Of a stretch of DNA of 4,315 nucleotides, positions 171-4,315 are shown one piece after another (the first letter of the stretch is position 1; the number at the start of each line of letters is the position of its first letter). Location: assembly GCF_056746865.1 (NCBI RefSeq), contig NZ_JBWKMP010000008.1; one strand, 5' to 3'. Origin of the DNA: a plasmid. The notes beneath the pieces were generated by a model, which did not search any database, was not told where the DNA came from, and saw nothing but the letters and a program-made list of their open reading frames with translations. A program made the translations under genes and the position numbers.

Positions 171-415
171 CGGCCTTTTGTCCTGGCTTTGCCTTTTTGC
201 TCACATGTTCTTTCCGGCCTTATCCCCTGATTCTGTGGATAACTGTGTTACCGTTTTTGTGTGAGTCAGTACCGCTCGCCGCAGCCGAACGACCGAGCGT
301 AGCGAGTCAGTGAGCGAGGAAGCGGAAAAGCGCCTGGACGTGCATTTTCTCCTTACGCATCTGTGCGGCATTTCACACCCGGCATGGGGCACTTTTCATA
401 CAATCTGCACTGATG
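171..415. other. Region downstream of the ColE1 origin, homologous to the pBR322 segment between ori and bom (lagging-strand initiation / primosome assembly area by analogy)
   Basis: Recognisable collinear similarity to pBR322 (ctcacatgttctttcc...ccgctcgccgcagccgaacgaccgagcg.agcgagtcagtgagcgaggaagcgga...ttctccttacgcatctgtgcgg.atttcacacc). Functional sub-sites not resolved. Confidence 0.5.
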
Positions 416-520
416 CCGCATGGTTAAGCCAGTATACACTCCGCTGTCGCTACGCGACTGGGTCAGGGCTTCGCCCCGACACCCGCTGACGCGCCCTGGC
501 GGGCTTGTCTGCTGCCGAAA
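415..520. other. bom / oriT-like site (basis of mobility) of ColE1 type, including the presumed nic region near 421-441
   Basis: ccgcatggttaagccagtatacactccgctgtcgctacgcgactgggtcagggcttcgccccgacacccgctgacgcgccctggcgggcttgtctgc is collinear with the pBR322 bom region lying between ori and rop. No relaxase/mob gene in the window. Confidence 0.7.
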
Positions 521-559
521 ACGCTCGCGGACAAGCCGTGAGCGCCTCCGTCAGCTTCG

Positions 560-754
560 TTATGTTCCTGTTTCACTTTCAGTCTCAAAGCGAACCTGGA
601 TGCTGTTCTGGAGTTCTTCCGCGAGTTCGTGCAGTCGTTCGCACATGGCCGCCTGTTCGTCGGCATCCAGAGCATCCAGTTTTTCAAGCAGTGTCAGGCT
701 CTGGCTTTTGATAAATCGCGCCATATTCAGCGCAGTTTGTTGCTGTTTGTTCAC
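560..754 (-). CDS. rop: Rop/Rom, the RNA I-RNA II pairing modulator protein (64 aa, GTG start)
   Basis: Translation MNKQQQTALNMARFIKSQSLTLLEKLDALDADEQAAMCERLHELAEELQNSIQVRF... aligns by eye with pBR322 Rop (MTKQEKTALNMARFIRSQTLTLLEKLNELDADEQADICESLHDHADELYRSCLARF...). GTG start as in pBR322 rop. GGAG/GGAAG motif just upstream on the - strand. Position and orientation relative to ori match pBR322. Confidence 0.92.
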   Translation of the reverse strand: MNKQQQTALNMARFIKSQSLTLLEKLDALDADEQAAMCERLHELAEELQNSIQVRFETESETGT

Positions 755-880
755 CTTCCGTTGTTCTCCGTCAGTACCGGGTGTCGGGTGGACCCTGACC
801 AGGTGGTAATTGTAAGACGTTGCGGGCGACGGTATTACAATTGCACATCCTGTCCTGTTTTTTTAGGACGTATCATGGCA
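755..880 (-). promoter_or_regulatory. Candidate rop promoter/leader region containing an inverted repeat TAATTGTAA(806-815)...TTACAATT(834-842); TACAAT-like -10 on the - strand
   Basis: Inverted repeat and a TACAAT hexamer read on the - strand. No convincing -35 at canonical spacing, so promoter assignment is tentative. Confidence 0.3.
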
Positions 881-1111
881 CAGCATATCAACTGATAAAT
901 AATCCCTGTGCAGTGCAGCCGCTGTTGCATAAAATTTCGCTCTGCGTCGAGTGTTTCTTAATCAATAATTCCGCTGATACTCCGGAAAAACGCGAGTCTG
1001 TTCTCATGCCTGAAATGCCCACACCCCACGCAAAAACAATTTTTTGCTGATTTTTCTTTATAAATAGAGAGTTATGACAAATTAGTTCTTCTTGCTCTCT
1101 TTGTGATATTT

Positions 1112-1160
1112 AAAAAAGCGGTGTCGGCGCGGTGTTGTAGCTGCGCCAACACCGCTTTTT
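1112..1160. terminator. Strong bidirectional rho-independent terminator: 13-bp stem gcggtgtcggcgc / gcgccaacaccgc with one mismatch, 12-nt loop, A6 upstream and T5 downstream
   Basis: Seen directly: aaaaaa-gcggtgtcggcgc-ggtgttgtagct-gcgccaacaccgc-ttttt. A/T runs on both sides allow termination in either direction. Confidence 0.75.
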
Positions 1161-1275
1161 AGGGGTGGTACTGACTATTTTCATAAAAAACATCATTTTA
1201 TATTAGGGGTGCTGCTAGCGGCGCGGTGTGTTTTTTTACAGGACGCCCCTGGGGGCGCTGCTAGGGGTGTCTGTT
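1160..1275. repeat. Repeat-rich, potentially structured spacer: TAGGGGTG x3 (1161-1168 as aggggtgg, 1204-1210, 1262-1269), GCTGCTAG x2 (1211-1218, 1257-1264), CGGCGCGGTGT x2 (1125-1135, 1219-1229), long-range inverted repeat ctagcggcgc(1215-1224)/gcgctgctag(1255-1264)
   Basis: Words found by reading the sequence. No ORF of 60 aa or more on either strand here. Function unknown. Confidence 0.5.
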
Positions 1276-1564: not shown

Positions 1565-1650
1565 TCAGGCGAAGATGAGAAAAGATGAATAGATCTGATA
1601 TGAATTACCATGATTACTCATGGACGGCTGTACAAGGAGATAATCCACGA

Positions 1651-1878
1651 ATGACTAAGCTAGATGCCACGCGCTTTAGCCGTCATGAGGGTTATGAGGT
1701 GTTAGATTTGATTAATTCCTTCCAGGCCAAAGGGGGTGGTGCTCTGACGCTAAAATCACAGCAGATTATCGAGTGGATGCTACATGAACGCCTGCCATCC
1801 AATATCCAGGGGCGAGCTCAGGTTAAAGCGTGGGTGGTTGATAACTTCTCGCAAATGAAGGATGGTTATCCATTCTGA
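1651..1878 (+). CDS. Small hypothetical protein (75 aa from ATG 1651; the in-frame ORF extends to ATG 1585, giving 97 aa), function unknown
   Basis: Strong Shine-Dalgarno AAGGAGA (1634-1640) 10 nt before ATG 1651. Clean intrinsic terminator immediately downstream. I do not recognise the family and see no obvious helix-turn-helix signature. The longer 1585 start has a weaker RBS. Confidence 0.55.
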   Translation: MTKLDATRFSRHEGYEVLDLINSFQAKGGGALTLKSQQIIEWMLHERLPSNIQGRAQVKAWVVDNFSQMKDGYPF

Positions 1879-1906: not shown

Positions 1907-2015
1907 ATGAGCTGTGCTCAATGAGGCATTATGGTAAATTGTTATGGAGTGGGCATGTCTGTATATGATGCCTGGTGGTATGATTTTGTTTGTAACACTG
2001 GAAGGTTGTTGGAAT
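1907..2015 (+). promoter_or_regulatory. Upstream region of the endonuclease gene, containing TTATGGTAAAT (1929-1939; identical to the cer XerD arm, and readable as an extended -10 TGgTAAATT) and RBS GGAAGG (2000-2005)
   Basis: Sequence reading only. The promoter is not experimentally defined. Confidence 0.35.
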
Positions 2016-2939
2016 ATGGATTTAACAAATATTGAATTTATTAATGATGCCGCAATAAATAGGAGGCGTTACTGGACTAATGAAATTGTCAAATTAAGTG
2101 GGCATTTTGTTAATGACTCCAGTAGGGTTGAGGAGGAAATTATTTATGAAGTTTCCAAATCTGGATCTCAGGCTTTATTGGACCACCTTCGATTATGCAC
2201 AGCCATTCCTGAATCATATGAGCATGATTCAAGCGAAGAAAAGTTATATTCAAAGTATACAGACGCATTGATTTCTGAATGTTTTAAGTTTTTTGGTTTG
2301 AATAGCATTGTGTTAACTGAGAGGGCTGATGCGGCAGATGTAGAAGTTGTATGTGATAGTTATTCTTTTGTTGCTGATGCTAAAGTTTTTCGGTTAAGTC
2401 GAACAGCTAAAAATCAGAAAGATTTTAAAGTTCAAGCAATGGATGGTTGGAGGAATACTAAAGATTTCGCCATGGTTGTTTGTCCAATATATCAGCTTCC
2501 AGTTAAATCAAGTCAAATATATCAACAAGCTATTCTTCGCAATGTGTGTGTGTTTACTTATACTCATTTAGCTGTTCTGGTAAAGTATGCTGACATTGTT
2601 GGTAGTGATGTTAGGATATTGTTAGAGGAAATATTCAGATCTGTCATACTCATGAATCCAAGTAAGGATAGTGTGCAGTACTGGACTATGATTAATAGAA
2701 CGATGTTGAATTATGATAAGAGAATAGAAAAACTTTGGATTGATGAGCGAATTGCTACATCAGAGGGTATCTATGTGCTGAAAAAGATGGCAATAGAATA
2801 CCTCTCTTCCGAGAGAGGTAGAATTCTAAGCATGAGCAGAGAAGAGGCTGTAAGAGCTTTGATTAAAATGAATAAAATTGAAAGTAGAATTGAGCAGATT
2901 AAAAAAGTGACAGATAATAATATTCTGTCACTTAAATAA
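2016..2939 (+). CDS. Type II restriction endonuclease, HindIII family (predicted AAGCTT specificity); 307 aa from ATG 2016, with the open frame extending upstream to 1944
   Basis: Translation contains ...SFVADAKVFRLSRTAKNQKDFKVQAMDGWR..., which matches my memory of the HindIII catalytic region (ADAKSFRLSRTAKNQKDFKV, PD-D/ExK active site), plus further collinear similarity (EEKLYSK..., SREEAVRALIK...). Length is close to HindIII (300 aa). Start at 2016 is preferred because the 24 upstream codons look non-native. This would correspond to the EcoVIII-type enzyme if my recollection of pEC156 is right (unverified). Confidence 0.88.
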   Translation: MDLTNIEFINDAAINRRRYWTNEIVKLSGHFVNDSSRVEEEIIYEVSKSGSQALLDHLRLCTAIPESYEHDSSEEKLYSKYTDALISECFKFFGLNSIVLTERADAADVEVVCDSYSFVADAKVFRLSRTAKNQKDFKVQAMDGWRNTKDFAMVVCPIYQLPVKSSQIYQQAILRNVCVFTYTHLAVLVKYADIVGSDVRILLEEIFRSVILMNPSKDSVQYWTMINRTMLNYDKRIEKLWIDERIATSEGIYVLKKMAIEYLSSERGRILSMSREEAVRALIKMNKIESRIEQIKKVTDNNILSLK

Positions 2940-3854: not shown

Positions 3855-3912
3855 CTAAATTCCTGCTCTTTCATAGCTTTAAAAACACGCTGATAGTATA
3901 CGTTAAAGTACC
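3855..3912 (-). promoter_or_regulatory. Candidate promoter/leader of the methyltransferase gene (-10-like TATACT, + strand 3895-3900), immediately adjacent to the RNA I terminator and RNA II promoter
   Basis: TATACT hexamer read on the - strand. No convincing -35. Placement is inferred. Confidence 0.3.
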
Positions 3913-3948
3913 TTGACGCAGGATTACCTTTCATCGTAGCCTTTCTGA
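3913..3948 (+). promoter_or_regulatory. RNA II promoter (-35 TTGACG 3913-3918; -10 candidate TAGCCT about 3937-3942)
   Basis: Position equivalent to the pBR322 RNA II promoter just upstream of the aaaaaacc...RNA I terminator sequence. The -10 assignment is approximate. Confidence 0.55.
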
Positions 3949-4053
3949 AAAGAAAAAACCGCCTTGCAGGGCGGTTTTTTCAAGGTTCAAAGAACTTGCA
4001 GGTTTTTGAACCACGGTAACTGGCTTTGTGGGAGCGCAGTCACCAAAATCTGT
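3949..4053 (-). ncRNA. RNAI: RNA I, the antisense copy-number control RNA (about 105 nt), complementary to the 5' end of RNA II
   Basis: 5' end placed by analogy with pBR322 RNA I (acagtatttggtatctgcgc... corresponds here to the reverse complement of gcgcagtcaccaaaatctgt). 3' end at the shared terminator hairpin. Confidence 0.8.
3953..3980 (-). terminator. RNA I terminator hairpin (aaaaaa-ccgcc-ttgcag-ggcgg-tttttt), which also forms the 5' stem-loop of RNA II
   Basis: Seen directly; equivalent to the pBR322 aaaaaaaccaccgctaccagcggtggtttgttt element. Confidence 0.8.
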
Positions 4054-4057
4054 TCTT

Positions 4058-4092
4058 TCAGTTTAGCCTTAACTGGCAAGAAACTTCAAGAC
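4058..4092 (-). promoter_or_regulatory. RNA I promoter (on the - strand: -35 TTGAAG = + strand 4084-4089; -10 CTAAAC = + strand 4061-4066)
   Basis: Same arrangement and near-identical hexamers to the pBR322 RNA I promoter as I recall it (TTGAAG...17 bp...CTACAC). Confidence 0.6.
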
Positions 4093-4315
4093 CAACTCCC
4101 ATAAAACCGTTACCAGTGGCTGCTGCCAGTGGCGTTAAGGCGTGTCTTACCGGGTTGGACTCAAGACGATAGTTACCGGATAAGGCGCAGCGGTCGGGCT
4201 GAACGGGGGGTTCGTGCACACAGCCCAGCTTGGAGCGAACGACCTACACCGAACTGAGATACCAACAGCGTGAGCTATGAGAAAGCGCCACGCTTCCCGA
4301 AGGGAGAAAGGCGGA

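Follow-up and report, generated by a model that had tools for sequence, protein, structure and literature searches.

The bom region of the DNA stretch analyzed here (4315 bp, hereafter the window) appears to be an orphan oriT of the MOB-HEN type, carried by a relaxase-less plasmid of the pEC156 kind in which the mob operon has been replaced, and probably usable in trans; a probability of about 0.85 is assigned to this reading. The window is a complete circular Escherichia coli plasmid with a ColE1-type replicon and is of the pEC156 type; sequences identical to it over the full length (100%) are found in E. coli from wastewater (CP056658.1), in Salmonella Typhimurium from cattle (NZ_CP032493.1) and in CP098986.1, a complete circular plasmid. 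The gene order, RNAI, ori, bom and rom, is the same as in ColE1, with the bom placed between oriV and rom. The only ORFs longer than 130 aa in the window code for a HindIII-family endonuclease and an N6-adenine methyltransferase and, together with Rop, these proteins account for all the Pfam matches obtained in a scan of ten window ORFs (Rop, RE_HindIII and N6_N4_Mtase). The features that define the plasmid are the following:

3950-4051, minus strand: RNAI of a ColE1-type replicon (Rfam RF00106, 85.8 bits)
560-754, minus strand: rom/rop (Pfam Rop, E 8e-35), with the start codon at 754
1944-2939, plus strand: HindIII-family endonuclease (Pfam RE_HindIII)
3854-2940, minus strand: N6-adenine methyltransferase (Pfam N6_N4_Mtase)

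An ORF overlapping the bom (420-809) was discarded as a gene; it has no family match and runs antisense to rom. The backbone composed of ori, bom, rom, two further oriTs and cer is common to many plasmids of 3.2-4.7 kb, which share 96-97% identity and carry other cargo.

Additional elements were observed in the remaining part of the plasmid. A cer-like XerC/XerD core is located at 1490-1518 (GGTGCGCGTAA, a 7-nt spacer and TTATGGTAAAT), and the 11-mer of its XerD arm, TTATGGTAAAT, is found again a short distance before the start of the endonuclease gene (1929-1939). Between cer and the restriction-modification (R-M) genes, a 97-aa ORF (1585-1878, plus strand) matches phrog_33929, whose function is unknown, over its full length (E 1e-35), has no match in Pfam, NCBIfam or PADLOC, and is followed by a GC hairpin (1881-1907) with a T run; this ORF seems to be a genuine gene, conserved but without a known function. 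The sequence AAGCTT, target of the EcoVIII/HindIII-type system that the plasmid apparently encodes, does not occur in the whole window; this absence alone is not significant, since about one site is expected by chance in 4.3 kb. Finally, RefSeq annotates a 53-aa "replication initiation protein" at 4058-4219 (minus strand), within the RNAII/RNAI region, in the window as well as in related ColE1-type plasmids; since a plasmid-encoded initiator protein is dispensable for ColE1 replicons, this entry is probably an annotation artefact.

Sequence comparison supports the identification of the bom. Window 330-556 has 87% identity with ColE1 (NC_001371, 1367-1604; E 2e-83) and 82% over 224 bp with the pBR322 backbone of pOF39 (2329-2106, minus strand; E 2e-62), the latter being used as a stand-in for pBR322, with a 100% match over 359 bp to the pBR322 sequence. 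The preliminary description had recognized a bom conserved relative to pBR322 and had placed the nic neighbourhood at 421-441, and both observations hold, the latter segment being identical to ColE1. The frame 415-520, used there for the whole region, is reasonable but arbitrary, and also holds one arm of a separate inverted repeat (502-512/527-537). Homology to ColE1 and pBR322, a conserved core with nic and an upstream inverted repeat, and a location adjacent to oriV and rom are all found together, as expected for a bom. The elements recognized in the region are:

425-484, minus strand (nicked strand): conserved 60-bp core of a ColE1-type (MOB-HEN/MOBP5) oriT, i.e. the bom, delimited by comparison with relatives
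437-424, minus strand: nic region, 5'-GTATACTGGCTTAA-3', found by motif search and invariant in all the ColE1-type cores aligned
462-480: hairpin A, from folding, an 8-bp inverted repeat GTCAGGGC-TTC-GCCCCGAC
446-458: hairpin B, from folding, GTCGC-TAC-GCGAC
484-485: hypervariable spacer, where the 10-bp difference from pBR322 falls, with a gap placement that is ambiguous over about 480-488
502-537: distal inverted repeat (arms at 502-512 and at 527-537), located outside the core and conserved in both ColE1 and pBR322

The mob genes that accompany this region in ColE1 are absent, as the preliminary description had stated. Searching the window by tblastn with ColE1 MbeA, MbeB, MbeC and MbeD and with IncI1 NikA and NikB gave a best E value of 0.72, and no Relaxase or MobC Pfam domain is present among the ten window ORFs scanned; thus, the plasmid does not have the MbeA relaxase and accessory proteins of its own that characterize a self-sufficient mobilizable plasmid (pMOB). 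BLAST end-points indicate how this arrangement is built: homology to ColE1 and to its mob+ relatives extends from oriV through bom and rom and ends exactly at 754. In ColE1 the start of mobC lies 64 bp past the point matching window 754, while in the window two further oriTs are found there. The absence of mob genes is thus explained by a replacement that begins at the rom start codon and has removed the mob operon, located after rom in ColE1.

With distant mob+ plasmids from Enterobacter, Erwinia and Edwardsiella the window shares a single block, the 60-bp segment at 425-484, which in those plasmids precedes mobC by about 100 bp; on sequence grounds this segment is most likely the functional unit of the bom. 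It agrees with the oriT annotated in pSNC3-Kan (pEC34B-based, nt 913-1001; PMC9282650), which corresponds to window 402-485. Compared with ColE1, 57 of the 60 positions are identical, with substitutions at 446, 455 and 471, and every column that is invariant across eight aligned ColE1-type oriTs is retained. The minus strand of the core, read 5' to 3', contains hairpin A (480-462), hairpin B (458-446) and the nic region GTATACTGG|CTTAA, with the conserved nic motif GTATACTGGCTTA at 437-424. The nick is predicted in the minus strand at 429|428 (TGG|CTT), which we take to be the phosphodiester cleaved in ColE1 and pBR322. The choice of strand agrees with the figure in PMC9282650: the strand described there has the plus orientation of the window, therefore the minus strand would be the one nicked. 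Folding of the whole minus strand at 405-545 was not significant (z = -0.8). As for hairpin B, it was rejected as a selected structure: the two substitutions that are private to the window with respect to ColE1, at 446 and 455, both make its stem stronger, but its significance is doubtful because the stem is not conserved in the distant relatives.

The conservation of the core bears directly on a rival explanation, in which the bom is an inert and unselected relic located between oriV and rom, and all transfer proceeds through the F-type and IncI1-type oriTs. The exact replacement of the mob operon from the rom start codon would agree with such a relic, as would the presence of two other oriTs and the mobilization of pEC156 via F and R64, reported in PMC4743918. 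Moreover, relative to ColE1 the core is no better conserved than the left flank (330-424), so that its integrity could be due to recent common ancestry and not to selection. Conversely, all positions that are invariant across distant functional ColE1-type oriTs are intact in the window, which speaks against a relic, and the 60-bp core is also found in isolation on unrelated plasmids without a relaxase. Indeed, a 1551-bp relaxase-less Col(MG828) plasmid carries the core as an isolated module with 58/60 identical positions and sharply defined borders on either side; such cases argue that plasmids acquire orphan cores and maintain them because they can be used in trans. For pBR322, use of the orphan bom in trans is a classical result (Finnegan and Sherratt 1982, cited in PMC9282650). 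Overall, the relic explanation is considered rather unlikely, and an orphan oriT usable in trans remains the preferred reading. That the bom of the window is active in trans is the somewhat favored outcome of the sequence comparison, against which the two private core substitutions (446 and 455) have to be set.

The Col(MG828) plasmid (CP057721.1) offers a further observation, since at 972-1321 three modules are packed together: a block 85% identical to window 271-330, which is possibly an ssi, an IncI1-type oriT (1070-1161) and the 60-bp ColE1-type core (1262-1321). Thus, orphan oriT modules of ColE1 and IncI1 type travel together outside ColE1 replicons. A different situation is found in NZ_AP027826.1 (3824 bp), a diverged plasmid that has no mob genes and encodes an R-M system of the HindIII family; at 500-570 this plasmid retains the distal part of the core and has TAAGCTCGGATACAC as nic region, versus TAAGCCAGTATACAC in the window; judging from this change, its oriT may have a different relaxase specificity.

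The sequence beyond rom contains the two other origins, which lie 290 and 535 bp from the bom and were identified using the RefSeq record of F and an IncI plasmid as references for the F and R64 oriTs:

775-862, plus strand: IncI1 (R64)-type oriT, 86% identical to the segment that directly precedes nikA-nikB in an IncI plasmid
1019-1269, minus strand: F-type oriT, 226/252 identical (90%) to F (NC_002483, 66155-66405), upstream of traM

In the IncI1-type oriT the arms of the 17-bp inverted repeat (808-818 and 832-842) are 91% complementary, the nick region CATCCTGTCC is located at 846-855, and 30 of the 31 positions at 832-862 are identical to the IncI oriT; the nick is predicted in the plus strand at 852|853, presumably the position used in R64. 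Nick region, NikA-binding repeat A and inverted repeats of an IncI1 (R64) oriT are therefore present, without nikA and nikB. Of the two inverted repeats that characterize IncI1 oriTs, of 17 and 8 bp (PMC3817090), the 8-bp element is degraded in the window by a 2-bp deletion. About 314 PLSDB records contain the same copy of this oriT with a coverage of at least 80%.

The F-type oriT has the F-specific nic motif GTGGGGTGT|GG, exact, at 1029-1019 in the minus strand, with a predicted nick at 1021|1020, and the nic/TraI-binding sequence is adjacent to the region of the IHF, TraY and TraM sites, as in the oriT of F (IncFI). Homology to F collapses 2 nt past the predicted nic (1021|1020, minus strand; window 1005-1031); this pattern would fit a capture of the F oriT mediated by the relaxase at nic, or selection acting on the relaxosome-binding side of nic only. 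With no relaxase and with oriTs homologous to those of conjugative plasmids (86% for IncI1 and 90% for F), the window has the features of a pOriT plasmid.

Comparison of the origins also revealed that the segment around hairpin A (461-484) is identical at 24 of 24 positions to the reverse complement of the 8-bp inverted repeat element of the IncI1 oriT, the corresponding value for ColE1 being 23/24; thus, ColE1-type and IncI1-type oriTs share a module. In the window the two occurrences of this module are in inverted orientation and flank rom (461-484 versus 781-804). If the bom works, the 24-bp element would be a functional module shared with the IncI1 oriT, serving for example in the binding of an accessory protein or in the termination of transfer.

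The same combination of origins has been described for pEC156 (AF158026), a 4312-bp plasmid carrying the EcoVIII R-M system, from E. coli E1585-68 (Mruk 2001; Werbowy and Kaczorowski 2016, PMC4743918). Like the window, pEC156 has a ColE1-type replicon, measures about 4.3 kb and lacks mob genes; it carries rom, cer and a HindIII-isospecific R-M system, and an "oriT-type R64" is followed by an "oriT-type F". The coordinates given for these oriTs (3867-3960 and 4098-4312/1-69) correspond to 775-862 and about 1000-1290 in the window, with a constant offset of about 3098, and the two lengths are 4312 and 4315 bp. From size, gene content and this constant coordinate offset we infer that the window is a plasmid of the pEC156 type. 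According to the same source, derivatives of pEC156 are mobilized without Mob proteins by F'ts114lac::Tn5 (efficiency 0.55) and by R64drd11 (0.24), and are transferred among several enterobacteria; in the part available, these results are reported without oriT-deletion controls. That part counts two oriTs and makes no mention of a ColE1-type bom.

These data modify the view of the preliminary description, according to which the bom is the sole transfer route, ColE1-type Mob proteins are needed in trans and the missing 10 bp may cripple nicking. Such a view is suggested by a bom without mob genes, and it agrees with the finding that a ColE-type oriT lacking these genes is not moved by IncP tra functions alone (PMC9282650). 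The relevant plasmid, pSe-Kan, resembles the window, as does pKPN2, in being ColE-like and without a mob operon and in carrying a ColE-type oriT1 together with an F-type oriT about 90% identical to F, while the cargo differs (aph(3')-I or the Kpn2I R-M system; PMC9282650). In that work pSe-Kan was not mobilized by IncP tra (<1e-7), showing that a ColE-type oriT needs Mob proteins in order to function, but the plasmid was mobilized by F tra (0.69, with cointegrate formation only partly excluded), as would not be expected if the bom were the only route. The F-type and IncI1-type oriTs present in the same window, and the report that F' or R64drd11 alone is sufficient to mobilize derivatives of pEC156 (PMC4743918), speak in the same sense; as to the missing 10 bp, the short allele occurs alongside intact mob operons, and mobilizable plasmids have spacer lengths between 0 and +13 nt. 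The sole-route view is thus very improbable. The statement that the plasmid should be mobilizable only with ColE1 Mob proteins in trans is probably right for the bom itself, in the light of the IncP result with pSe-Kan, and is wrong for the plasmid, because of the two other oriTs and of the published mobilization of pEC156 by F and R64. Differences between related plasmids are also on record, since pKPN2, unlike pEC156, is reported as not mobilized by R64drd11 (PMC4743918).

Other known systems are placed at different distances from the window. In pBR322 a homologous orphan bom, derived from pMB1, lies between ori and rop, equally without mob genes, and differs by 10 additional bp in the spacer and by two changes in hairpin A; its mobilization classically depends on Mob proteins provided in trans (as cited in PMC9282650), and F alone does not move pBR322 because neither an F-type nor an R64-type oriT is present. 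ColE1 has a nearly identical core (57/60), an identical nic region and the same position of the bom relative to oriV and rom; unlike the window, it carries mbeC, mbeA, mbeB and mbeD immediately beyond rom and has a +10 spacer. The pOriT "hitcher" plasmids (PMC11389934) are similarly relaxase-less, with oriTs that match those of conjugative or mobilizable helpers; in that review pEC156 is the example of a multi-oriT mobilizable plasmid and two oriTs are counted, whereas the window has three oriT-like loci corresponding to three relaxase lineages (MOB-HEN, IncI1 MOBP and MOBF).

The absence of about 10 bp relative to pBR322 is real and the gap, at about 484, appears in the alignment with ColE1 as well. 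The 10 extra bases are GCTAAAACCT in ColE1 and CCGCCAACAC in pBR322; because of a local repeat, the pBR322 segment can equally be written as gccaacaccc, as in the preliminary description, and the placement of the gap is ambiguous by a few bases. For a survey of the spacer, 60 records were taken at even intervals from the 2265 PLSDB matches, and 41 of them span the site: relative to the window no extra nucleotides are present in 9/41, while +3 is found in 3/41, +10 in 24/41, +11 in 1/41 and +13 in 4/41. The inserted sequences differ among ColE1 (+10), pBR322 (+10) and pSNC3-Kan (+13), and the last plasmid has been mobilized experimentally by IncP and F tra genes (PMC9282650). The short allele (0 extra nt) is found in pTA133-2, pGPT21-004_2 and an ETEC plasmid, all encoding MobC, MbeB and MbeD; pTA133-2 and pGPT21-004_2 also have a full-length MbeA ORF with the Pfam Relaxase domain (510 and 517 aa), and MbeA of pTA133-2 is 92% identical to that of ColE1. 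Thus, the suggestion that the missing bases could affect nicking is unlikely to be correct, since the spacer is hypervariable and located at the outer (distal) edge of the conserved core 425-484, and the short allele co-occurs with full mob operons. The length involved, about 10 bases, is approximately one helical turn, so that any phasing with the distal inverted repeat at 502-537 would be kept. Distant plasmids of Enterobacter and Erwinia have a ColE1-like GCTAAAAC spacer, a finding that favors a deletion in the window over a duplication in ColE1 and pBR322; in view of the wide range of spacer lengths (0 to +13 nt), the polarity of the indel is unimportant.

A separate question concerns the segment beyond the spacer. 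The distal inverted repeat at 502-537 may belong to a second primosome assembly site, ssiB, of the ColE1 replicon. The whole segment at about 485-540 would then be part of ssiB/n'-pas and not of the oriT, and the indel would alter the spacing between oriT and ssiB, with no change inside the oriT. In favor of this proposal, conservation of the oriT core does not extend past 484, a distinct inverted repeat, also conserved, follows at 502-537, ssiB lies further downstream of ori than ssiA (PMC3167613), and the block at window 271-330, in common with the Col(MG828) plasmid, resembles the first ssi. On this evidence the assignment to ssiB deserves serious consideration, with the odds somewhat against it.

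Under the preferred reading, that of an orphan oriT usable in trans, a co-resident ColE1-like plasmid would supply the MOB-HEN relaxosome, made of MbeA with MbeB and MbeC. This complex would form on 425-484 and introduce a nick into the minus strand near 429|428, leaving the relaxase attached to the 5' end; the coupling protein and pore of a conjugative plasmid would then export the nicked strand, with the oriV side first. With the mob operon replaced from the rom start codon by oriTs of IncI1/R64 and F type, the relaxases of the corresponding conjugative plasmids would act directly on the added origins: NikA and NikB of IncI1 plasmids at 775-862, with a plus-strand nick near 852|853, and TraI, TraY, TraM and IHF of the F system at 1019-1269, with a minus-strand nick at 1021|1020. 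The 10-bp difference would reflect length variation in a non-conserved spacer that borders the core, leaving the nick site undamaged. In its strongest form this scheme makes the orphan bom a working third transfer origin, so that one plasmid could be served by three relaxase systems (MOB-HEN, IncI1 NikAB and F TraI), a proposal whose chances we judge to be slightly short of even.

Natural co-residents were looked up in one carrier of a plasmid identical to the window, E. coli RHBSTW-00204, and include a 116-kb conjugative IncFIB/FII plasmid (CP056656.1), a 4.4-kb non-mobilizable plasmid and a 4.2-kb MOBQ plasmid. None of the co-resident plasmids looked up in this host is of the MOB-HEN type, a result in line with the relic explanation discussed above. 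The oriT of CP056656.1 (74066-74497) has an R100-type nic, GTAGTGTGT|GG, and is otherwise unlike the F-type oriT of the window. Since the nic is of R100 type (GCGTAGTGTGT|GG) and the region of the TraM and TraY sites is unrelated, the 116-kb plasmid is no obvious cognate helper.

A bom without mob genes is a textbook arrangement, of which pBR322 is the classic case; indeed, orphan boms, relaxase-less pOriT plasmids and pEC156 as a multi-oriT plasmid are already established, and the finding has little consequence beyond correct annotation. The 10-bp difference from pBR322 and ColE1 is to be regarded as a common natural spacer allele and not as a lesion. The sole small addition concerns the number of oriT-like loci in the pEC156-type backbone, three versus the two given in the 2016 paper; the ColE1-type bom, unmentioned in the text available (PMC4743918), is a possible third route. 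The pEC156 type is a cited multi-oriT example that spreads an R-M system among enterobacteria, and a plasmid such as the one analyzed here should be scored as mobilizable by F-like and IncI1 helpers, beyond ColE1 Mob proteins alone.
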